A stretch of 48,813 nucleotides of DNA, taken from Candidatus Nomurabacteria bacterium RIFCSPHIGHO2_02_FULL_42_19. Its GTDB lineage: Bacteria > Patescibacteriota > Minisyncoccia > Phycocordibacterales > UBA9973. A program made the position numbers and the translations under genes. The notes under the pieces are model-generated. The model ran no database searches. It saw only the letters and a list, made by a program, of their open reading frames with translations, and was not told the DNA's origin. Position 1 is the stretch's first letter, and each line of letters begins with the position of its first letter. The stretch covers positions 1 to 48,813 of the forward strand of contig MFUG01000005.1 of the NCBI GenBank assembly GCA_001785615.1, in the 5' to 3' direction. Positions 363 to 43,266 of the stretch are shown here, piece after piece.

Positions 363-1661
363 TTATTTTTTACCCTCTAAAGCAAGCGCTTTTTGGCCGA
401 TGTCTTTACGATATTGCATTCCCTCAAAAGAAATTTTCCCTATGGCTTTGTAGGCGTTGCCCAGTGCTTCCTTTAAAGTATTACCTGTAGCGCTAACACC
501 CAGCACCCTTCCACTATTAGTTGTGAGGCCTTGCCTCACAACTTTAGTGCCAGCATGAAAGATCACTATATCTGGCTCTTTTGCCGCGTCTTCAATGCCA
601 GAAATTACTTTCCCCTTTTCATATTTACCTGGATAACCGCCGGAGGCCAAAGCAATATTGCAAGCGAATTGTTTTTTCCATTTGATTTCTTGGTTCTCAA
701 GTCCCCCATCAATGCTTGCTTCAATAAGGTCTAACAAGTCAGAATCAAGTAGCCGCATGTAAACTTGTGTTTCCGGGTCGCCAAAGCGCGCATTAAATTC
801 AAAGACCTTCGGGCCCTCATCGGTCAACATTATTCCTGGATATAAAATTCCTACGAATGGCCTGCCTTCTTCGGCCATACCCTCGATAGCTGGTTTTACA
901 ATTTTCTTTTCAATGCGGGAGAGGAGCGTGCTATTTACGAATGGTAACGGCGCTACTACTCCCATGCCTCCGGTATTGGGACCGGCATCGTCGTCATAAA
1001 CGCGCTTGTGATCTTGCGATGCCGGAAAAATTTTCCACGATTTTCCGTCTGAAAGCGCGTGAATAGAAATTTCTGTGCCTTCTAAAAATTCTTCGATCAC
1101 AACTTCATTGCCGGAAGCGCCAAAAACTTTACCCACTAAGATTTTATGGAGCGCCTCAATTGCTTTTTCTTTTGTTTGCGCAACCGTTACTCCCTTGCCA
1201 AGCGCAAGCCCGCTTGCCTTAACCACGACGGGTACTGGTCCTTTTTCTATATAAATTTTTGCTTTTTCAAAGTTATTAAAGACCTCATGTCGGGCCGTTG
1301 GAATATTATGTCTTTTCATGAAGTCCTTGGCATACGCTTTTGACCACTCGAGTTCTGCCGCGGCCCGGGTCGGACCCCAAATACGGAGACCAGCTTTTTG
1401 AAATTCGTCTACTACCCCCTGCGCCAATGGGTCATCCGGAAGCGCTAAAGTAATATCAATTTTTTCCCGTTTTGCAAATTCAATTAATTTTGAGATATCT
1501 GTGGCAGAAATATTAATATTTTTTCCTAGTTCGGCAGTACCACCGTTTCCGGGAGCAAAGAAAATCTCTCTTGCTCGTTCTTCTTGCGCTATCTTCCAGC
1601 CGATCGCATGCTCCCTGCCTCCCCCGCCAATTATTAAAATTTTCTGTTTTTTTTCTACCAT
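363..1661 (-). CDS. purD: phosphoribosylamine-glycine ligase
   Basis: 432-aa ORF with N-terminal ILIIGGGGREHA and an ATP-grasp body (FNARFGDPE). It lies in the pur cluster. Confidence 0.95.
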   Translation of the reverse strand: MVEKKQKILIIGGGGREHAIGWKIAQEERAREIFFAPGNGGTAELGKNINISATDISKLIEFAKREKIDITLALPDDPLAQGVVDEFQKAGLRIWGPTRAAAELEWSKAYAKDFMKRHNIPTARHEVFNNFEKAKIYIEKGPVPVVVKASGLALGKGVTVAQTKEKAIEALHKILVGKVFGASGNEVVIEEFLEGTEISIHALSDGKSWKIFPASQDHKRVYDDDAGPNTGGMGVVAPLPFVNSTLLSRIEKKIVKPAIEGMAEEGRPFVGILYPGIMLTDEGPKVFEFNARFGDPETQVYMRLLDSDLLDLIEASIDGGLENQEIKWKKQFACNIALASGGYPGKYEKGKVISGIEDAAKEPDIVIFHAGTKVVRQGLTTNSGRVLGVSATGNTLKEALGNAYKAIGKISFEGMQYRKDIGQKALALEGKK

Positions 1662-1679
1662 GATTTTCGTTCTAATGTT

Positions 1680-2285
1680 CTAACGAACTTTAGAACATAG
1701 TTTCTCTAGGACCTCCACGTATAACTGATTTTCTTTTTTCTTTAGGCGGGCGTATAGCGACTCAACTGTATCGTTAACCATAATTTTTTCATATGTTCTT
1801 CCTAAAACCGGACCAAAATCAAAGTCCAAAGTTAAAAAATGTATCGAAGAGCCGGCATAAGTGCTCTTTTCGTCCAGAAAATTTTGAATGGCCTTGGTGG
1901 TAAGCATGCCTTTATTCCAGAGTGCCTCTGTGCCGTCGGGATTTTTAACTTTCCCAGCAACTGTGTCCGGGATTAACCCAGGGTGCAAATTCAAAATTTT
2001 ATTTGGATACACTAGAATAACCTCGTCTAAAATAATTTGTTTCCAACCAGTGAGGGCTATATAGTCGGGGTTTATTTTTTGTAAAAGTGGCAAGAGCTCC
2101 TCCTTCGCTCCACAAATTTCTATTTTTAGTTTGTGCGCTTTTGCGTGTTCTAGCCCTAAAGCATTTGGAGTGTCGGAAATTACCGCGCAAATTTCTGCTT
2201 TGATTCTGCCTTTTTCAATCCCGTCAATGATGGCCAGGAGATTAGTGCCGGCGCCAGTATTGGAAATAAGAATTGCTATCTGCAT
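1680..2285 (-). CDS. purN: phosphoribosylglycinamide formyltransferase
   Basis: 201 aa with formyltransferase motifs (ILNLHPGLIP). It sits between purF and purD. Confidence 0.9.
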   Translation of the reverse strand: MQIAILISNTGAGTNLLAIIDGIEKGRIKAEICAVISDTPNALGLEHAKAHKLKIEICGAKEELLPLLQKINPDYIALTGWKQIILDEVILVYPNKILNLHPGLIPDTVAGKVKNPDGTEALWNKGMLTTKAIQNFLDEKSTYAGSSIHFLTLDFDFGPVLGRTYEKIMVNDTVESLYARLKKKENQLYVEVLEKLCSKVR

Positions 2286-2294
2286 GAGTTGATT

Positions 2295-3704
2295 TTACTC
2301 CTTAGGTACGTCATAGTTTATTTCCTTAGCGCGTTCATGAATATCGATTGGATATACCCCGTCAAAAGAAGAAAGTGAAAGGCGCTCCTTCGGCAATTCG
2401 GTGGCTTCAATCATTCCGGGAATAGAGAGATAGGAGAGCGATGTAGCCCCTAGAAATTTACAGATTTCTTTTATGGTCTTCTTTGACCCTATCAATTCGT
2501 TTTGTTTAGGAGTATCAATGCCATAAAAGTCAGGAAACTTTATCGGCGCAGAACTTACCAAGAAGTGAACTTCTTTCGCGCCGGCTTCAAAAAGCATTTT
2601 TACGATTTGCTTGCTAGTGGTACCACGCACGATGGAGTCATCCATTACGGCGATACGTTTACCACGAATCACGTTTTGCAGTGGGGTAAGTTTTAGTTTC
2701 ACTTTTTCTTCGCGCACTTCTTGAATCGGCTCGATGAAAGTGCGATTAATATAACGATTTTTAGAAATAGCCATTTCAAATAAAATGCCTGATTCTTCAG
2801 CATAGCCCATGGCCGCGGAGATGGCGGTGTCGGGCACTGGAATTACCATATCCACATCTATTTTGTGCTCGCGCGCCAGCATCTTGCCGAGATTTTTTCT
2901 TACTTCATATACCAATTTACCAGCAATAACACTATCGTATCTAGCAAAGTAAACATATTCAAAGATATCAAGCTTAGGATCTGCCTTGGCCAGGATTCTG
3001 CTTTCTATTCCCTTCTTGGTTATAACTACCATTTCCCCGGGCTCAACTTCTCTTATAAATTTTGCTCCGATTGTCTCTAGGGCGCATGTTTCAGAAGAGA
3101 CGATTGTCTGCTTGCCTTTTTTACCGAGGACAAGCGGCCTAATACCGCAAGGGTCGCGAAAAGCGACCAGAGTATCGAGTCCAAGGGCTACGCAAGAAAA
3201 TGCTCCGGTGAAAAGCGGATAAGCCGCGGCTACCGCGTCCGGCAATGTTTTACCCCTTTTCATATAAAGACCTATCGCTCCGGTCATCAGTTTTGAGTCC
3301 GAATAATTCTCGGTTATTTCATTATTGCTTTTTAGAAAATCAATTAGGGCCTTTACGCTGGGCAAGTTGCCATTGTGTCCGAGCGCAAAAAGGTTGTCAT
3401 AGACAAATGGTTGGGCGTATTCAACTTCTAGGCCGGAAGAAGTTGAATAGCGATTGTGTCCGATTGCCGCGAAGCCCGGCAATTTGGTCAGAATTTCTTC
3501 AGTATAAATTTGGCTTACTAACCCTGCATCTTTATGTAAACGTAGTTTCTTGCTGTCGGTCGTGGCAATGCCGGAGTGTTCCTGTCCGCGGTGCTGAAGG
3601 GAAAACAGGCCGAAATACGTTTCCCTGGCAATGTCTGTAGGCGAAGAAGTCCCATTTCCAAAAATTCCAAAGACCGCGCATTTCTCGTTTAGATCTTTTT
3701 TCAT
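2295..3704 (-). CDS. purF: amidophosphoribosyltransferase
   Basis: 469 aa. An Ntn cysteine follows a short propeptide (MKKDLNEK-CAVFGIFG), and the PRTase motif VMDDSIVRGTT is present. Confidence 0.95.
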   Translation of the reverse strand: MKKDLNEKCAVFGIFGNGTSSPTDIARETYFGLFSLQHRGQEHSGIATTDSKKLRLHKDAGLVSQIYTEEILTKLPGFAAIGHNRYSTSSGLEVEYAQPFVYDNLFALGHNGNLPSVKALIDFLKSNNEITENYSDSKLMTGAIGLYMKRGKTLPDAVAAAYPLFTGAFSCVALGLDTLVAFRDPCGIRPLVLGKKGKQTIVSSETCALETIGAKFIREVEPGEMVVITKKGIESRILAKADPKLDIFEYVYFARYDSVIAGKLVYEVRKNLGKMLAREHKIDVDMVIPVPDTAISAAMGYAEESGILFEMAISKNRYINRTFIEPIQEVREEKVKLKLTPLQNVIRGKRIAVMDDSIVRGTTSKQIVKMLFEAGAKEVHFLVSSAPIKFPDFYGIDTPKQNELIGSKKTIKEICKFLGATSLSYLSIPGMIEATELPKERLSLSSFDGVYPIDIHERAKEINYDVPKE

Positions 3705-9019: not shown

Positions 9020-9074
9020 GTATCTTGTCTTTTGTCGTTGATACTGTCATACTTAATGGTTGAAGGAGTTCCCC

Positions 9075-9296
9075 ATGAACATCGTCTCCCCGAAGTACGA
9101 GCCAGATTTCTTCACGGATGACGAACTGCTGGAGACCCAAAAAATCCTCAGCATGAACGGCACGATACACACCGTCGATGGGAAAGTGACAGTGGTCCTT
9201 CCCATCGGCCACGGTTTTCTCGAGGTTAGCGGCATGTCTCTTGGTGATGCGTGTCGGGTTGCTTTCGCAACCCTGAACACGGTACGAGAGAACTAG
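9075..9296 (+). CDS. GC-rich orphan small protein (73 aa), island A
   Basis: ATG 9075 follows GAAGGAG (9062-9068) with a 6-nt spacer. The ORF is 52-57% GC on two hand-counted lines. A stem-loop follows. The track start 9060 is a TTG that overlaps this GAAGGAG, so it has no SD of its own. Confidence 0.55.
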   Translation: MNIVSPKYEPDFFTDDELLETQKILSMNGTIHTVDGKVTVVLPIGHGFLEVSGMSLGDACRVAFATLNTVREN

Positions 9297-9313
9297 CCCC
9301 CATCGTGTTCCAT

Positions 9314-9340
9314 GTGCCGGAGAGTTCAACTCTCCGGCAC
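9314..9340. terminator. 11-bp GC-rich stem-loop between convergent island A ORF and purA
   Basis: GTGCCGGAGAG-TTCAA-CTCTCCGGCAC forms a perfect stem, 18 nt after the island A stop and 8 nt before the purA stop. Confidence 0.6.
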
Positions 9341-9347
9341 CCACATT

Positions 9348-13364: not shown

Positions 13365-13715
13365 CTAAAAGGACAGAGTCACTTTTCGATACTTTTTCAG
13401 CTCTTTTTTTGTAAGACGAAAATCCGAATTTCCCCCGTCAATTAAAATACTATTCTGCGGAATTATTTTTAGCCAGAGATCTAGTTCTTCTTCCATACTT
13501 AGAGCAGGAATCATCAACCAAATGATTGCTCGCTCTTGCCCAAAGGCCGCCAGGACTTCTTCTTTTGTATAAGCAGACACCATTCCTAGATCTTTCGCTT
13601 CATCAACTTTTTCCCTGCTCCGATTGTGGGCGATAACAGTAAATTTATCTTCATGCAGTTTTCTTGCAACCTGCATTCCCATTTTTCCTAAACCAATTAC
13701 CGCAACTTTAATCAT
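13365..13715 (-). pseudogene. gnd: 6-phosphogluconate dehydrogenase N-terminal (Rossmann) remnant, 116 aa
   Basis: VAVIGLGKMGMQVARKL ... IDGGNS matches the NAD(P)-binding domain only. The ORF stops about 20 aa after GGNS, 37 nt before the zwf start. The catalytic C-terminal two thirds are missing. Confidence 0.6.
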
Positions 13716-13756
13716 AAGGGGATTATACTCTATATTTATTTGTCGTCTAGGAGAAG

Positions 13757-13785
13757 TTGATTTTCTTTTTTTTTTAAACTAATCT
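13757..13785 (+). promoter_or_regulatory. candidate sigma70-type promoter for island B (TTGATT-17-TAATCT)
   Basis: The -35 is at 13757-13762 and the -10 at 13780-13785, in the AT-rich spacer upstream of the ParB-like ORF. Confidence 0.35.
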
Positions 13786-13856
13786 TCTTTAAGAGTTACT
13801 GTACGAGCCCCCTGTGGGCTGTTGTTTGGAAACGTTCTTCAAAACAAGGAGCTCAC

Positions 13857-15272
13857 ATGGCAACTGCAGACAAGCAAGTTCGAGTTACCGGTGAACAGGA
13901 AATTAGCCAGGTACGTCGCATTCCGCGGAGTCAGATTCGGCGTTTCCCAGATCAGCCCCGCAATTTTTTCGATGCAAAGGACATGAATGACCTCGCCGCG
14001 AGCATTGAAGAAATTGGACAACAAACGCCCATCGTCGTCAAAGTCGTCACTGGCGATCCGAAGCATAGCTTCGAGTTGGTGGATGGCGAACGACGCTGGA
14101 TCGCCTGTGGAATGGCGAACGTGGATACCATGCTCGCCTGGGTGCGACCAATCGCAGACAGCGACGAACAGTTCATTGCGTCGGTGGTTGGCAACTTCGG
14201 ACGGTCCGGTCACACGGCACTCGAGATCTCTCAGGCCGTCGATCGCATCAGAAAGTCGAAGCGAATGCAGGAGCTTTCGCCCGGGGAACAAGTGGCGCGA
14301 ATCGCGAAGATCTTCGCCCGTTCTGAACCCTGGGTGTACTCACATCTCGCAATCCTGCGGCTTCACCCCGACGTGCAAGCAATGATGGCGCCGATGATCC
14401 CCGAAGAGGAGCGTCTGAGCCATACGCTTGGCGTGTTCATCTCGAGCTTGCACCAGGATCTCCAGCTCGAGATCGCCAAGGCGGTGCTGGCGAAAAAGAT
14501 GAGCCTCAACCAGGCGCGTCTCTACGCTCGGCAAGTTGCTGAGGAAGCGGGCGTGAAAGTTGGAACCAACCGAGGGAGAGCACCAGGTCTTCCTTCGCAA
14601 AGTTGGGTTCGTCTCAAGAACATGGTTCGAATCGCCCAAGAGGGACTCAACGCACTTCTCGTACCGGCCGTTCAGGACGCACTCAAGAAACGTGACCCGG
14701 CGGATCGTGCCGTCATGGCGACGGAACTGGAACAGTGTATTGCTCGTCTGAATCAAATGAGGGTAATTCTAATCGAAATGCCTTCAACTCTTGAGGTCGA
14801 GTGTCCACGACCTGTGTCGATACCCGCATCGGTGGTAGTCGACATCCGATTCCCACGCAAAGTGAAAGAGCTAACGACGCCGATTGCTCAAGCTCTTCCA
14901 CCTCCGCTGGCTCGAAAACCTGTTCCCACTCCCAACATACCAAAGGAGCAATCCATCGAGCTGTCACACAAGGTGCTGTCCGCATTGTTCTACCGGGACG
15001 GTCAACCTATCATGAACTTGGGTCGTCGTCGACTTCAAGAGGAACTGCCGGACATCGATGACTTGGATATTGCAGTAAGCCAAGCACTTCGGGCAGCGAA
15101 AAATCACTGGCGAATTACACCCGAAGGACCAAAGGAAAAACAGAATTTGATCCGGCTGATGCATCGTTTCCGGCATAACTACGGCAACTGCAAGGAATTT
15201 GCCCAAGCGCTGGAACATGCCAGGAAATGGGATGAATCGGACGATCCGGTTTCTCTGCATTTCAAAAAGTAG
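13857..15272 (+). CDS. orphan ParB/Srx-domain protein with ParB-type HTH and unassigned C-terminal half (471 aa), island B
   Basis: Motifs are FPDQPRNFFD, LAASIEEIGQQTPIVV and LVDGERRWIA (ParB box II-like), then an HTH segment VARIAKIFARSEPWVYSHLAILRLHPDVQ. AAGGAG lies 5 nt before the ATG. One hand-counted line is about 57% GC. Confidence 0.85.
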   Translation: MATADKQVRVTGEQEISQVRRIPRSQIRRFPDQPRNFFDAKDMNDLAASIEEIGQQTPIVVKVVTGDPKHSFELVDGERRWIACGMANVDTMLAWVRPIADSDEQFIASVVGNFGRSGHTALEISQAVDRIRKSKRMQELSPGEQVARIAKIFARSEPWVYSHLAILRLHPDVQAMMAPMIPEEERLSHTLGVFISSLHQDLQLEIAKAVLAKKMSLNQARLYARQVAEEAGVKVGTNRGRAPGLPSQSWVRLKNMVRIAQEGLNALLVPAVQDALKKRDPADRAVMATELEQCIARLNQMRVILIEMPSTLEVECPRPVSIPASVVVDIRFPRKVKELTTPIAQALPPPLARKPVPTPNIPKEQSIELSHKVLSALFYRDGQPIMNLGRRRLQEELPDIDDLDIAVSQALRAAKNHWRITPEGPKEKQNLIRLMHRFRHNYGNCKEFAQALEHARKWDESDDPVSLHFKK

Positions 15273-15343
15273 TACGCGCGCTTGGGCGCCAAACCAAGAT
15301 GCAAGCTCGACTTTTCGAGCAGGGCCGAGAGTCCAAACTCTCA

Positions 15344-15386
15344 ATAGCTAGCAACACCCGAAAGGAGAATGTTTGCTGGCTATTTT
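15344..15386 (+). terminator. stem-loop plus T-run after the ParB-like gene
   Basis: ATAGCTAGCAA (15344-15354) pairs with TTGCTGGCTAT (15373-15383) as 11 bp with one G-U pair. TTT then an AT-rich run follows. Confidence 0.5.
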
Positions 15387-15403
15387 AATTTCAGTAAACT
15401 TTT

Positions 15404-15447
15404 ATGAATTACCTAACTTATGCGACCGCTAGAGTTAGGTAATTCAT
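15404..15447. repeat. perfect 15-bp inverted repeat with 14-nt spacer
   Basis: ATGAATTACCTAACT (15404-15418) and AGTTAGGTAATTCAT (15433-15447). Confidence 0.9.
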
Positions 15448-15480
15448 CGAGTAATTTCGGCATATGCTGAAATCTTATAA

Positions 15481-16143
15481 CTATTTTTTATAGTCGGTAA
15501 AAATTGTTAATAAGGGGATTTTTTTTAATACTTGTGCCGGTTCGTCAAAGACGGGAATGTCTTTCTCTAAGTCCTGAAGCACCCACCACTTTTCCTTCCC
15601 CTGCATGAAAACTACCGCTTCGTCTAATTGTATTATTGTCTTAGGTGTGATAGTAATGCGCTCAAATTGTTTTGCCTTGTATCTATGGGCCAAGTCCGAC
15701 GAATTCACTGCGTCACTTTTGGGCATTATTCCTCCAGTGTGCGCATTGGCGCCAACGCCGAATAAACCAATTTTATAATTCGCTTTGGCCAACTCTTCTC
15801 GCAAGATAGTATTAAAATTTTTAGTCGTCGCGATAAGATCTTCTCCAGTTAAAATAGGAATGAGCTTGGACTGTGGGAGATTAAAACCATGCTCTTGTAT
15901 TTGCTGCCAATTTGAGTTCTGGTGCCCGACTGGTCCGTAACGCTCATCGGCCATAATGACAGTTAAATTTTTATGTGGATATTTTGAAATAGTTCTGGCT
16001 GTCTCTACGGCGACAGTAATAGCCGAACCGCCCGGCACAAACCATAAAACATTTTTCCCGGACTTCAATTGTTCTAGGATTTTACTTGCGAGAAATTTTG
16101 CGGCAACCCCAGTATTTGTTGTGGTTTGTATATTTAGTTGCAT
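15481..16143 (-). CDS. pgl: 6-phosphogluconolactonase
   Basis: 220 aa of the SugarP-isomerase/6PGL family, with VPGGSA and MADERYGP motifs. Confidence 0.8.
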   Translation of the reverse strand: MQLNIQTTTNTGVAAKFLASKILEQLKSGKNVLWFVPGGSAITVAVETARTISKYPHKNLTVIMADERYGPVGHQNSNWQQIQEHGFNLPQSKLIPILTGEDLIATTKNFNTILREELAKANYKIGLFGVGANAHTGGIMPKSDAVNSSDLAHRYKAKQFERITITPKTIIQLDEAVVFMQGKEKWWVLQDLEKDIPVFDEPAQVLKKIPLLTIFTDYKK

Positions 16144-24316: not shown

Positions 24317-25795
24317 ATGCCAAGCGCAACGGTAAACATAAGCGAAATAATCGACTTCATGGGGAGTAAATTGAGCAGGAAAGAAGAGGAGCTTCTGCTT
24401 AAGGCCTATAAATTTTCAGAGCAAGCGCATGCTGGACAAAAAAGAATGAGCGGGGACCCATATTTCTTTCACGTTTTTGAAACAGCAAAAATATTAGCTA
24501 GACTTGGTATGGATACCCAGACGGTGGCCACAGGACTTTTACATGATTTGCTGGAAGATACAAAAATAACTGAAGCAGAAATCCAGAAAGAATTTGGCGA
24601 AGAGATTACCTTTTTAATTAAAGGCGTTACAAAACTTGGTACTCTAAAATATCACGGGCACGAAAGGCATGTGGAAAGCTTACGGAAGTTTTTCGTAGCC
24701 ATGGCAAATGACCTACGCGTGGTGATTATAAAATTCGCCGATCGATTACATAATTTACGCACGCTCGAGTTTATTCGAGAAGATAAAAGGAAAAGAATTG
24801 CCGTAGAATCGATCGAGGTGTATGCACCGCTGGCGAACCGTCTCGGTATGGGGAAATTAAAAGGTGAGATTGAAGACGCCGCTTTTCCCTATGCTTATCC
24901 GAAAGAATACGCGCAAATAGAAGAAATAATTAAAGAGAAAAAAGAATCATATGAAAAGTGTCTGGCTGAAGTACGCGAAATTCTGGAAAAAGAGTTGAAG
25001 AAAAATAAAATAAAAGTGGATGAAATAAGTTATCGGATGAAACATAAATATAGTTTGTACAAGAAACTGCTGAAATATGACATGGATATAGAGAAAATCT
25101 ATGACATCGTCGCGCTACGAGTGGTGGTAGAGAATGTAGAAGAATGTTATAGAATTCTAGGGCTGGTGCATTCTATCTGGAATCCTCTCCCCGGCCGCAT
25201 AAAGGACTATATTGCCATACCAAAGCCAAATGGCTACCGTTCTATTCATACTACAATTTTTACTGGCATCCTTGGTGTAGCCGAAGTCCAGATCCGGACG
25301 AAAGAAATGCACGCGGAAGCCGCTTATGGTATCGCCGCCCATTTTGCTTATAAGGAACAAAATAAAAAAAGTCGCGATGATAAATCAAAATTTAAGTGGA
25401 TTGAAGAATTGAAAGAATTGAAATATGTTCCCGGCGAGCCGAAAACCTTCATTGAGCACTTAAAAATGGATTTCTTTAACGATCGTATTTTTATTTTTAC
25501 TCCCAAGGGAGATGTGGTGGACTTGCCGGAGGAATCAACTCCGGTGGACTTCGCTTATTCTATCCACTCTGATATTGGAAATCACTTATTTGGCGCAAAA
25601 ATAAATAGTAAAATGTCCCAGATTTTTACAAAATTAAAAAATGGCGATATCGTGGAAATAATCACAAAAAAGGACTCTCGGCCTTCAAGTAAATGGCTAG
25701 AATACACCAAAACGACAATCGCGAAAAAACATATAAAGTCATATTTAGAAAAAAATAGTTTACTCTCTAAATTGAAATCCTTCGGCCGTAGTTAA
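24317..25795 (+). CDS. bifunctional-type (p)ppGpp synthetase/hydrolase (HD + synthetase + TGS), lacking the C-terminal regulatory domains
   Basis: 492 aa with an HD region (LLHDLLEDT), a synthetase region (RIKDYIAIPKPNGYRSIHT) and TGS (IFIFTPKGDVVDLPEESTPVDFAYSIHSDIG). It ends soon after TGS. Confidence 0.88.
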   Translation: MPSATVNISEIIDFMGSKLSRKEEELLLKAYKFSEQAHAGQKRMSGDPYFFHVFETAKILARLGMDTQTVATGLLHDLLEDTKITEAEIQKEFGEEITFLIKGVTKLGTLKYHGHERHVESLRKFFVAMANDLRVVIIKFADRLHNLRTLEFIREDKRKRIAVESIEVYAPLANRLGMGKLKGEIEDAAFPYAYPKEYAQIEEIIKEKKESYEKCLAEVREILEKELKKNKIKVDEISYRMKHKYSLYKKLLKYDMDIEKIYDIVALRVVVENVEECYRILGLVHSIWNPLPGRIKDYIAIPKPNGYRSIHTTIFTGILGVAEVQIRTKEMHAEAAYGIAAHFAYKEQNKKSRDDKSKFKWIEELKELKYVPGEPKTFIEHLKMDFFNDRIFIFTPKGDVVDLPEESTPVDFAYSIHSDIGNHLFGAKINSKMSQIFTKLKNGDIVEIITKKDSRPSSKWLEYTKTTIAKKHIKSYLEKNSLLSKLKSFGRS

Positions 25796-26796
25796 ATACT
25801 GAATTTTGAAATGTCGTATAGTTTAGCATCGTCTTCTTTTACTTCATCTTTACTTCTGTCATCTATGGCGTCCTGTGGCGCTTCTTCTTTATTCTCCGGC
25901 GTTATCTCTACCTTTGGATTAGAACTTTTCGCAATATGATTTTCCAGCATTTCCTCCGGCTTCTTTTCGCGCATTTCTTTTTTAATCAAGTCCAGAATAG
26001 AACGCAGGTCGTCCGTAGAAAAAAAATCAATTTTAATTTGCCCGCCTAATTCTTTTCTTTCGATATGCACCCGAGTACCCAGCTTATCTTGAAATTCTTC
26101 TTCTAATTCTAGAATTTCTGGATCCGGCAGAAACTCTTTCTTGCGCACGCGGTCAAAGGCAATCTTCCTGGCTAGACGTTCCGCTTCTCGTACTGTAATT
26201 TTCTTATATAAAATTTCTTTGAACAACACTATCTGTTCTTCGGGATGGTCCGCTAACATAAGGATGGGACGAGTATGTCCTTCAGTTATTTTACCCTCCG
26301 ATAAAGCAGTTAAGATTTCTTCCGAAAGGGTTAAAATACGGAGAGTGTTGGAGACATATTCACGGCTCCGACCTATCTTTTTCGCCACTTCATTATGAGT
26401 GAACTTAAACTCACTGACTAAACGAAAAAAGGCACGAGCGCGATCAACCACGTTCAAATCCTCGCGTTGCAAGTTTTCAATAATAGCAAGCTCCAGCTTC
26501 ATCATGGCCGTGTCGCCGGTGCGGATAATTACCGGTACTTGCAGAACCCCGGCAATTTTCGCCGCGCGCAGTCGGCGTTCTCCGGCAATGAGTTCATATT
26601 CAGTCACTAATCCTCCTTCTTCTTTTTCGACTTCCATTCTAGAAACTGTCAGAGGTTGCAGTACCCCGTACTGCTTTATGGAAAGAGCCAGGTCCGCTAG
26701 ACGCGCTTCGTCAAAATCCCTACGAGGTTGATAAGGGTTTGGTTTTATTTTATCGGTATCAATCCAGAAAATTGAGTTGGAATACAAGTTGGACAT
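25792..26796 (-). CDS. parB: chromosome-partitioning protein ParB/Spo0J
   Basis: 334 aa with IKPNPYQPRRDFD, LIAGERRLRAAKIAG, an HTH and an acidic C-terminal tail. No parA is adjacent. Confidence 0.9.
   Translation of the reverse strand: MSNLYSNSIFWIDTDKIKPNPYQPRRDFDEARLADLALSIKQYGVLQPLTVSRMEVEKEEGGLVTEYELIAGERRLRAAKIAGVLQVPVIIRTGDTAMMKLELAIIENLQREDLNVVDRARAFFRLVSEFKFTHNEVAKKIGRSREYVSNTLRILTLSEEILTALSEGKITEGHTRPILMLADHPEEQIVLFKEILYKKITVREAERLARKIAFDRVRKKEFLPDPEILELEEEFQDKLGTRVHIERKELGGQIKIDFFSTDDLRSILDLIKKEMREKKPEEMLENHIAKSSNPKVEITPENKEEAPQDAIDDRSKDEVKEDDAKLYDISKFSI

Positions 26797-41820: not shown

Positions 41821-43266
<1,446 letters not shown>

Follow-up and report, generated by a model that had tools for sequence, protein, structure and literature searches.

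The subject of this analysis is a ParB-like gene in a 48,813-nucleotide stretch of DNA from Candidatus Nomurabacteria bacterium RIFCSPHIGHO2_02_FULL_42_19 (contig MFUG01000005.1, positions 1 to 48,813), referred to below as the window. The gene is the only one on a ~1.64-kb expression cassette, made up of a promoter, a 5′ stem-loop, the coding sequence (CDS) and a 3′ untranslated region (UTR) with terminator, that is inserted between the genes pgl and gnd. Its product is best read as an orphan ParB/Noc-type nucleotide-switch DNA clamp, which would act as a regulatory platform and be carried by a mobile yet vertically persistent single-gene cassette. We give this reading about an even chance.

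[quoted passage not shown] Bacteria of the candidate phyla radiation (CPR) have tiny genomes and few known regulators. A horizontally exchanged regulatory clamp in this group would be informative, if the reading is true.

Insertion of a single-gene cassette between pgl and gnd

In the window, 1765 bp separate the stop codon of pgl from the start of gnd. At the corresponding loci of two relatives, L184 and L183, pgl, gnd and zwf are contiguous and co-directional: in L184, pgl overlaps a full-length, 300-aa gnd by 4 bp, and in L183, the two genes are 91 bp apart. L184 also has the gene order of the window (serS, a 278-aa open reading frame (ORF), dus, holB ... pgl-gnd-zwf ... guaB-purA), and the flanking proteins are 57–79% identical between the two. 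A first-pass annotation of the same DNA had proposed an antisense insertion into the pentose-phosphate cluster and a look at the gnd-pgl spacer of relatives; the insertion is borne out by that comparison, and the ParB-like gene is indeed antisense to both pgl and the gnd fragment.

Homologs of pgl place the host among Nomurabacteria/Paceibacterota-like CPR bacteria. The same island arrangement was found on 18 of 18 read contigs encoding the identical ParB-like protein, from several groundwater-type samples. No island-free strain variant was seen, since all eight loci shown for an identical pgl carry the island. The parts of the cassette are as follows:

13757..13785, plus strand: putative cassette promoter, a conserved block with a −35 box TTGATT (13757-13762), a 17-nt spacer and a −10 box TAATCT (13780-13785)
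13806..13820, plus strand: conserved 5′ stem-loop AGCCC-CCTGT-GGGCT, with covariation
13834..13856, plus strand: leader GTTCTTCAAAACAAGGAGCTCAC, which includes the Shine-Dalgarno (SD) sequence AAGGAG; L001, L185 and L103 have a near-identical leader, L005 and L186 a similar one
13857..15272, plus strand: ParB-like CDS, 471 aa (ORF call; identical protein on 18 read contigs from several samples)
15273..15393, plus strand: structured 3′ UTR of "type A", with hairpins at 15278-15302, 15305-15320 and 15327-15342 and a terminator at 15343-15384 followed by UUUUAAUUU

The SD sequence lies at 13846-13851, 5 nt ahead of the ParB-like ATG, and both it and the terminator, a hairpin at about 15343-15384 followed by a T-run, had been correctly picked out in the first pass. 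The island limits given there, 13757 and 15400, likewise fall close to the bounds of the cassette, which runs from the −35 box at 13757 to the end of the terminator T-run at about 15391.

The gene had also been described as lying in DNA of about 57% GC. It is foreign in composition, with a GC content of 0.544 over the ORF and 0.55–0.58 in the core of the gene, against 0.42 in the remaining window. GC content at third codon positions (GC3) is 0.58 in the ParB-like gene and 0.34–0.42 in seven of eight neighbouring host genes checked, the eighth, a HAD-like gene, being at 0.29. The bias of the ParB-like gene thus exists at the nucleotide level and does not come from amino-acid composition alone.

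At the cassette, neither a target-site duplication nor terminal inverted repeats were detected. The short inverted repeat that had been suspected of bracketing it (13794-13801 and 15392-15400) is not conserved in homologous cassettes and is taken as chance; its 8-nt arms were not listed at a threshold of 10 nt, which gave 28 other pairs in the same 2.3 kb. An integron attC site was considered for the 3′ hairpin and rejected, the R″ and R′ cores (RYYYAAC / GTTRRRY) being absent on inspection of the sequence.

Conserved frame of the cassette

The first conserved block of homologous cassettes at unrelated chromosomal sites consists of (C/A)TTGATTTT, about 17 nt and a −10-like hexamer, and similarity between the window and these loci begins at the −35 box. 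The block at 13757..13785 would be the promoter of the cassette; it was not listed by a simple consensus promoter scan. The leader GTTCTTCAAAACAAGGAGCTCAC is unique within the window.

The 5′ stem-loop was found in 12 distinct cassette sequences from 13 loci, with 88% of cells paired. Three of the five pairs of the stem change on both sides, and the covariation score was reached by none of 500 shuffles, a result that rests on only 12 related sequences and that an RNA hairpin or a protein-bound DNA palindrome fits equally well. The pattern RGCCCN5GGGCY has a single match in the window, which is the 5′ stem itself. The stem may be a leader RNA hairpin, or else a DNA inverted repeat acting as an operator. 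The 5′ 100 nt of the cassette are at least as conserved as the CDS, with values of 0.79 against 0.68 between the window and L001 and 0.80 against 0.66 between L005 and L186.

The 3′ UTR of the window is predicted to fold with −44.1 kcal/mol (z = −3.5) into four hairpins, the last of which is the terminator, followed by a T-run. Over about 125 nt, it shares ~90% identity with the 3′ UTR of an AAA+ ATPase gene at another locus, L103, whereas the ParB CDSs of the two loci are 73% identical. In hairpin 1, four of the five substitutions form two compensatory pairs (15282/15297 and 15285/15294, U-A to C-G and G-C to A-U), and the terminator stem covaries among L001, L005 and L024. Type A UTRs follow the ParB-like genes of the window, L001, L005, L024 and L186; a second type (B) is found in L187 and after the ParB gene of L103, and L185 and L025 have other types. 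The same UTR types are found after AAA+ genes as well, with type A at L103 and type B at L008. The UTR type does not track protein similarity, which points to recombination between cassettes.

Among all the DNA fetched, the elements of this frame are confined to these cassettes. The cassette matches no Rfam family even at E ≤ 1, and viral contigs contain no exact copy of the 18-nt core of the type A terminator loop. Palindromes within the CDS, near residues 67, 150 and 201, were considered as a possible loading site and dropped: they occur in just two to three of 12 cassettes, about what codon choice would give, and lie on conserved peptides with Lys and Phe, or Asp, Leu and Gln.

ParB core and nucleotide motifs

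The N-terminal half of the protein consists of two recognisable domains:

13908..14171, plus strand: ParB-CTPase (ParB_N) fold, residues 18-105 (Pfam E = 4e-15; predicted local distance difference test (pLDDT) score ~90)
14217..14546, plus strand: ParB-type helix-turn-helix (HTH), residues 121-230 (weak match to Pfam HTH_ParB; Foldseek)

The 471-aa ORF, its ParB_N and HTH domains and the three motifs quoted in the first pass (DQPRNFF, IGQQTPIVV and DGERRWIA) were all verified. ParB_N (PF02195) matches residues 18-105 with E = 4e-15. HTH_ParB, at residues 147-227, stays below threshold (E = 0.003, 18.2 against 22.6 bits), but structural alignment supports the assignment. Foldseek aligns ~210 columns, covering the N-terminal and HTH domains, to ParB of M. 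xanthus, B. subtilis and C. crescentus, Noc and KorB, with a best E of 5e-12 and target-normalised TM-scores of ~0.7 to the N+HTH structures of ParB, Noc and KorB. A profile of the family finds M. xanthus ParB (7bnk) at E = 8.5e-32 and KorB more weakly, at 1.6e-13. NCBIfam TIGR00180 (parB_part) scores above its cut-off, and ParB-like PHROG families match the core (best E = 1.5e-23).

An AlphaFold2 model, built from a 17-sequence family alignment with a mean pLDDT of 79, resolves five parts: the ParB-CTPase fold (17-113), the HTH (121-230), a hairpin (246-306), a linker (310-361) and a C-terminal domain (362-465). Residues 1-15 are disordered in the model.

The nucleotide motifs are box I, QPR (Q33-R35); box II, GERRWIA (77-83); and box III, VGNFGR (111-116). 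Q33-P34-R35 and G77-E78-R79-R80 are invariant in the family alignment. In the window protein, the third Arg of box II is replaced by Ile82, and the Glu of ENLQR in box III by Gly112. Most family members share the Ile at this position of GERRxRA and have Gly, Ser or Asp where ENLQR has its Glu. The replacement in box II had been noted before; the loss of the box III Glu had been overlooked. In ParB, the ENLQR Glu, the GERR Glu and the QPR Gln contribute to CTP hydrolysis. From these motif states, nucleotide binding with altered hydrolysis is expected. Nucleotide specificity in this fold is reported not to be reliably predictable by sequence analysis or AlphaFold3, in the part of PMC12704722 drawn on here.

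The host has its own ParB (25792-26796, minus strand), with canonical QPR / GERRLRA / ENLQR motifs. It shares 26% identity over 213 residues with the island protein, in keeping with the earlier statement that the two are unrelated in detail, and by this measure, the ParB-like gene is not a recent copy of host parB. A phylogenetic placement of the ParB domain had been proposed as well. A distance tree built on the core puts the window protein in a clade with the named CPR members and leaves host ParB outside that clade, nearest to canonical ParBs; by profile, the island core is nearer to chromosomal ParB/Noc than to KorB.

The description of the gene as an orphan is upheld, as no ParA-type Walker A motif (KGGxGK[ST]) was found in six frames of the 48.8-kb window. 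The suggested search for parS-like sites gave no canonical parS (TGTTTCACGTGAAACA) in the window with up to three mismatches. A ParA-binding motif of the LG(R/K)GL type, as defined in the part of PMC12704722 drawn on here, is absent from the N-terminus MATADKQVRVTGEQEISQV.

As a side observation, host ParB opens directly with box I, lacks an N-terminal peptide for ParA binding and has no adjacent parA. The housekeeping ParB of this lineage may itself work independently of ParA.

C-terminal half of the protein

The C-terminal half comprises three segments:

14592..14774, plus strand: helical hairpin, residues 246-306 (AlphaFold2 helices 246-267, 270-277 and 281-306, pLDDT ~90)
14784..14939, plus strand: Pro-rich disordered linker, residues 310-361 (pLDDT < 50)
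14940..15251, plus strand: C-terminal domain, residues 362-465, followed by a conserved tail D-x-S-x-DPVSLHF (pLDDT 92)

The first pass had left this half unassigned. The hairpin and linker are now resolved by the model, while the C-terminal domain is still without any match in Pfam, the PDB or viral structures. The hairpin, at which short-form homologs stop, is probably a dimerisation module. Pfam ParB_C (PF23552), the C-terminal dimerisation domain of canonical ParB, has no match at E ≤ 0.1 in the ParB-like protein, where the hairpin, the linker and the C-terminal domain stand instead; canonical ParBs among the compared homologs do carry it. The linker, of about 50 aa, differs in both length and sequence among homologs.

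The C-terminal domain, of about 105 aa, is confidently folded when modelled alone (pLDDT 92, predicted template modelling score 0.85). It has no fold neighbour in the PDB or BFVD (all E > 1) and no significant sequence match in Pfam or the PDB. Among 1.84 billion representative proteins, its profile picks out just 37 clusters, with the domain C-terminal in every case. Thirty of these clusters were scanned: 17 have ParB_N, and the other 13 have no ParB Pfam domain, although they are mostly short and may be fragments. One further protein, P0034, joins a divergent ParB half with canonical motifs to the same C-terminal domain. This, together with the interleaving of long and short forms described below, shows that the C-terminal domain is a modular addition.

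The end of the protein (residues 457-471, 15225-15269), with the tail D-x-S-x-D-P-V-S-L-H-F, is acidic and then hydrophobic. It resembles short partner-docking tails, such as the SSB tip and clamp-binding motifs, a resemblance noted as a lead only.

Distribution of the family and its chromosomal sites

Members of the family come in a long form (429-493 aa, full length) and a short form (~310 aa) that ends after the helical hairpin. With one genome taken per species, full-length matches were found in three of 185,579 species genomes; a fourth long form, in the Saccharibacteria relative L027, is interrupted by a masked run of N. All named members belong to the CPR (Nomurabacteria, Doudnabacteria, Minisyncoccia, Paceibacterota and Saccharibacteria), and in the distance tree of the core, long forms are interspersed with short ones. 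The sites of the long forms are as follows:

Window: pgl, ParB-like, gnd
L001 and L185: murC ..., ParB-like, (PIN) S1
L005 and L186: S9 (grpE, cutA) ..., ParB-like, DUF2914
L187: prfA, ParB-like, rpsB
L103: prfA, AAA+, ParB-like, rpsB
L024 and L025: other contexts

The ParB-like gene is the sole element shared across at least six unrelated chromosomal sites. In nearly every host, it has a GC content of 51–58%, against 37–46% in its flanks. Three pairs of loci share the same site, and in these, the host neighbours are 76–94% identical, whereas the ParB-like proteins are just 59–73% identical. The same-site pairs show purifying selection and long vertical persistence, and their ParB-like genes remain GC-rich, except that of L186 (GC 0.48, GC3 0.43). 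GC-richness is thus a maintained trait of the family and not only a mark of recent transfer. By these comparisons, the cassette moves horizontally across sites and classes, yet also persists vertically through speciation, and it evolves faster than its neighbours.

No relative above ~34% identity was found among IMG/VR contigs, GenBank phages and PLSDB plasmids, and the best matches cover the core only; those in plasmids reach at most 32% identity. Small ORFs upstream of the ParB-like genes are unrelated to one another and to the ORF at 9060-9296 of the window, and have been ruled out as conserved partners on the ground that they are mutually unrelated.

A separate observation concerns the neighbourhood of loci of the Nomurabacteria and Doudnabacteria types, in which the ParB-like cassette, in long or short form, lies 0.2–4 kb upstream of a block made up of an opposite-strand S1-domain gene, Lactamase_B_3 and gyrA (L001 12174-14081, L009 9230-11286, L185 5603-6694). 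Its recurrence hints that the S1/Lactamase_B_3/gyrA neighbourhood may be an old common location in part of the CPR.

Coupling to an AAA+ ATPase

At each of the three short-form loci examined, the ParB-like gene is followed, 10–21 bp downstream, by a gene of 322-328 aa with Sigma54_activat and AAA_lid_14 domains (and HTH_8). The loci at which such a partner was found are L008 (8943-9911), L009 (4919-5905), L188 (5966-6937) and L103 (824-1810). L103, the locus that encodes the full-length homolog nearest to the window protein, carries a separate AAA+ cassette directly upstream of its long-form gene. Furthermore, P0029 is a single-chain fusion of ParB core and AAA+, and in P0032, three XRE-type HTH domains are fused to the same ParB core. 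Adjacency, in either gene order, and fusion thus indicate that a ParB/Noc-like core is coupled to an AAA+ ATPase of the σ54-activator type. Pairing with an ATPase of the enhancer-binding type points to gene regulation rather than to chromosome partition.

At L103, the region 700-3600 contains two tandem cassettes between prfA and rpsB. The AAA+ gene of the first (824-1810) has the promoter and stem-loop frame of the L187 ParB gene and a type A 3′ UTR; in the second, the ParB gene of the long form (2053-3417) is followed by a 3′ UTR of type B.

Proposed mechanism

What we infer about nucleotide binding, clamp behaviour, DNA target and regulatory role can be put together as follows. A dimer would recognise a specific DNA site, for which the inverted repeat of the leader is the only conserved candidate. 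Nucleotide binding would then shut the N-terminal domains into a clamp. Loss of the box II third Arg and the box III Glu would probably make hydrolysis, and hence release of the clamp, slow or altered. The DNA-bound protein would serve as a regulatory platform by way of its tethered C-terminal domain, in the manner of KorB-KorA, BisD and VirB and not in that of chromosome partition. The effector end may be the C-terminal domain on its flexible ~50-aa linker, the AAA+ partner, which resembles a bacterial enhancer-binding protein (bEBP), or both.

Several points weigh against this reading. The 5′ inverted repeat could equally be an RNA stability hairpin, and no palindrome inside the cassettes is conserved family-wide. 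Boxes II and III depart from canonical ParB, and nucleotide binding is a prediction. The C-terminal domain offers no functional hint. No homolog of the AAA+ partner was found in the 48.8-kb window by tblastn. Moreover, the four partner ATPases all carry GAFTDA instead of GAFTGA, and a Walker B of GTLFFNEV, in which Asp is changed to Asn; these changes suggest a non-canonical, possibly slow-hydrolysing ATPase. Promoters of the σ54 type (−24/−12) number four in the window against 2.3 expected, which is not above chance, and none lies near the cassettes. Taken together, GAFTDA, the Walker B Asn and the missing promoter signal make activation of σ54 transcription doubtful even for the short forms.

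A more far-reaching version, which we think rather improbable, is that the clamp, the bEBP-like AAA+ protein and the structured UTRs make up a CPR-specific, mobile and previously undescribed module of two nucleoside triphosphatases (NTPases), of which the window holds the clamp half. A CTP-type sliding clamp would position or gate an AAA+ motor, as a "sliding enhancer" in place of DNA looping, and the long form would have in its C-terminal domain an alternative or extra docking module.

Alternative explanations

The protein could instead be a Noc-like second chromosome-organising paralog, which would bind sites on the chromosome, spread from them and tether DNA through its C-terminal domain to some other structure of the cell, such as the membrane, the divisome or a pilus/competence apparatus. 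The core is nearer to chromosomal ParB/Noc than to plasmid KorB, the gene is present in every read contig of the population that encodes the identical protein, and elsewhere it survives host speciation. Host ParB has neither an adjacent parA nor a visible ParA-binding motif, which makes ParA-independent roles of ParB plausible in this lineage. However, the family is very patchy, with a full-length match in three of 185,579 species genomes, its site varies between lineages, its codon usage is foreign, and it evolves faster than its neighbours. The protein reaches 72.9 with the Noc model, for which the cut-off is 315, and regulation is a better fit to the coupling with a transcription-type AAA+ ATPase that bears a Fis-type HTH and to the fusion with HTH domains of the XRE type. 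We regard this explanation as unlikely. About as unlikely, in our judgement, is a component of anti-phage or anti-plasmid defence or of xenogeneic silencing, in which the clamp would load onto foreign or marked DNA and the AAA+ protein or the C-terminal domain would be the effector. A patchy, horizontally mobile, compositionally atypical and fast-evolving family that is paired with an NTPase would suit such a role, and some loci adjoin genes of variable regions (PIN, Fic/RhuM, DUF3800 and a PLD-family gene). These neighbours are nevertheless not shared between loci, and in the window, the gene stands alone between housekeeping genes. No conserved nuclease, toxin or abortive-infection-type effector accompanies the family, and the defence context raised in the first pass found no match in PADLOC.

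Another possibility raised there was that the gene is the relic of a mobile element, that is, the surviving partition or regulatory gene of a decaying plasmid, phage or integrative and conjugative element (ICE). Orphan ParB-like proteins are often tied to mobile elements, as described in the part of PMC12704722 drawn on here. The foreign GC content and codon usage and the PHROG matches to the core (E = 1.5e-23) would agree with this origin. But at least six unrelated sites have in common just this one gene with its own promoter and terminator, next to upstream ORFs that are unrelated, and no integrase, transposase or phage gene is adjacent. Matches in IMG/VR, phages and plasmids stay at or below 34% identity and are limited to the core. 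On 18 read contigs, the ORF is found whole and in identical form, and same-site pairs are under purifying selection. The relic idea is the least supported of the four rivals and seems to us very unlikely. A selfish single-gene element, of which the protein or the structured ends would drive its own spread or retention by gene conversion at the UTRs or an addiction-like effect, is also very unlikely. It would account for cassette ends that are more conserved than the CDS and for 3′ UTR types that are shuffled between ParB and AAA+ genes, off the protein tree; the GC-richness kept after long residence could then mean repeated replacement or GC-biased conversion. On the other hand, the conserved ends are ordinary expression signals, for which functional constraint alone suffices, and neither a recombinase or nuclease motif nor a target-site duplication or terminal inverted repeats were found. 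The regulatory clamp on a persistent cassette remains the preferred reading.

Flanking genes and other GC-rich regions of the window

The cassette is bordered by the following features:

13365..13715, minus strand: gnd remnant, 116 aa, NAD-binding domain only (Pfam NAD_binding_2 only), flanking host gene
13716..13756, no strand: left junction DNA, from the gnd start to the cassette; holds a promoter-like site for gnd
15394..15480, no strand: right junction DNA, from the cassette terminator to the pgl stop; hairpin and palindrome (inverted-repeat search)
15481..16143, minus strand: pgl (6-phosphogluconolactonase), flanking host gene (Pfam Glucosamine_iso; homologs in Nomurabacteria and Paceibacterota)

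The gnd genes of relatives encode 300-301 aa and include the 6PGD domain. The remnant in the window is 64% identical to L184 gnd over 107 aa, and its stop is 37 bp from the start of zwf. The missing part is the C-terminal end, on the side of zwf; the end that faces the island is intact, and the truncation was therefore not caused by the insertion. The oxidative branch of the pentose-phosphate pathway looks broken at step 3, despite intact zwf and pgl genes. The insertion splits an oxidative pentose-phosphate operon with an already truncated gnd, which bears on the metabolic annotation of the lineage.

The left junction DNA has no counterpart at the empty site of L184. A promoter-like site facing gnd lies in it, at 13749 to 13722 on the minus strand (TAGACG-16-TATAAT, 10/12 matches), back to back with the cassette promoter, and could restore transcription of gnd-zwf after the operon was split. 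In the right junction, between the terminator of the cassette and the pgl stop, there is a perfect hairpin with 15-nt arms (ATGAATTACCTAACT ... AGTTAGGTAATTCAT) at 15404-15447 and a 20-bp palindrome (ATTTCGGCATATGCTGAAAT) at 15454-15473. This DNA is not conserved in other cassettes, and the empty site of relatives holds nothing that corresponds to it; it may represent a newly acquired pgl terminator or junction DNA carried in by the insertion. Palindromes centred on GCATATGC past the terminator (15454-15473 in the window, and in L185) were rejected as a cassette feature: only copies from the same population match, and a second GCATATGC was found after topA, so that they are put down to chance or to generic terminators.

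A second GC-rich, cassette-like island lies at 9020-9347, between a gene for a HAD-like hydrolase and purA. It has an SD sequence GAAGGAG and an ATG at 9075 that opens a 73-aa ORF ending at 9296 (ORF 9060-9296; GC3 ~0.70, no Pfam match), followed by a strong hairpin, GTGCCGGAGAG-TTCAA-CTCTCCGGCAC, at about 9316-9342. The island has no Rfam match, and its flanks are unlike the frame of the ParB cassette. A third GC-rich patch, at 42000-43000, is atpD (F1 β subunit; 41821-43248, minus strand). Judged by eye, the N-terminal region of AtpD has a Pro/Gly/Arg-rich stretch that looks like an insertion compared with typical β subunits.

Comparison with known systems

Canonical ParB/Spo0J and Noc provide the best sequence and structure matches for residues 17-230, and QPR and GERR are kept. 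The island differs from canonical ParB in having no ParA in the window and no ParB_C or ParA-binding motif in its protein, which has GERRWIA for GERRxRA and GNFGR for ENLQR and adds a Pro-rich linker and a C-terminal domain with no detectable relative. Scores for specialised ParB families stay well below their cut-offs: 72.9 against 315 bits for Noc (TIGR04285), 42.7 against 278.6 bits for PRTRC ParB (TIGR03734) and 28.4 against 201.5 bits for RepB (TIGR03454). PADLOC-DB 2.0 defence models yield no family at E ≤ 0.1 for the ParB-like protein.

KorB of RK2 acts with KorA as its clamp-locking partner (PMC11790492; PDB 8qa8/8qa9). It has in common with the island protein the ParB-CTPase fold, an HTH and a separate dimerisation module, and a regulatory sliding-clamp role is predicted for the latter. 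In contrast to KorB, the island protein has no match to KorB_C (PF08535), no KorA-like neighbour and no plasmid location, but lies among housekeeping genes, and the sister loci have an AAA+ ATPase as partner instead of a small repressor.

BisD of ICEclc and VirB of Shigella, in the parts of PMC12409273 and PMC10770331 drawn on here, are ParB-like CTP clamps that activate or de-silence genes, and they are precedents for CTP clamps that regulate transcription at a distance without ParA. They are likened to the island protein by description and not by sequence grouping. According to the same parts of these sources, both are encoded in large mobile elements of Proteobacteria (an ICE and a virulence plasmid, respectively), with neither an AAA+ partner nor the island C-terminal domain.

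[quoted passage not shown] With these fusions, the island family has in common a PF02195 domain outside a parAB operon, no ParA-binding motif, a non-Pfam domain, horizontal mobility and divergence of box III. Unlike most of the orphans in that part of the paper, the family retains a ParB-type HTH and is chromosomal rather than located on plasmids or prophages; the same part has no mention of CPR/Patescibacteria members, a σ54-type AAA+ partner or the island C-terminal domain. A pairing of ParB with an enhancer-binding AAA+ protein was described in no title or abstract found by literature search.

The partner at the sister loci is built like bEBPs without a receiver domain (PspF-like), with Sigma54_activat, AAA_lid_14 and a Fis-type HTH_8, and in P0029, the ParB core occupies the usual position of the bEBP regulatory domain. 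It differs from bEBPs in GAFTDA and the Walker B Asn, and in the lack of a −24/−12 signal. The island in the window has the shared cassette frame (TTGATT promoter, RGCCC-N5-GGGCY stem, type A/B UTR) but no adjacent or fused AAA+ protein there. Set against these known systems, the family adds the coupling of a clamp core to an AAA+ ATPase, a confidently folded C-terminal domain without a match and an unusually conserved frame around a single-gene cassette.

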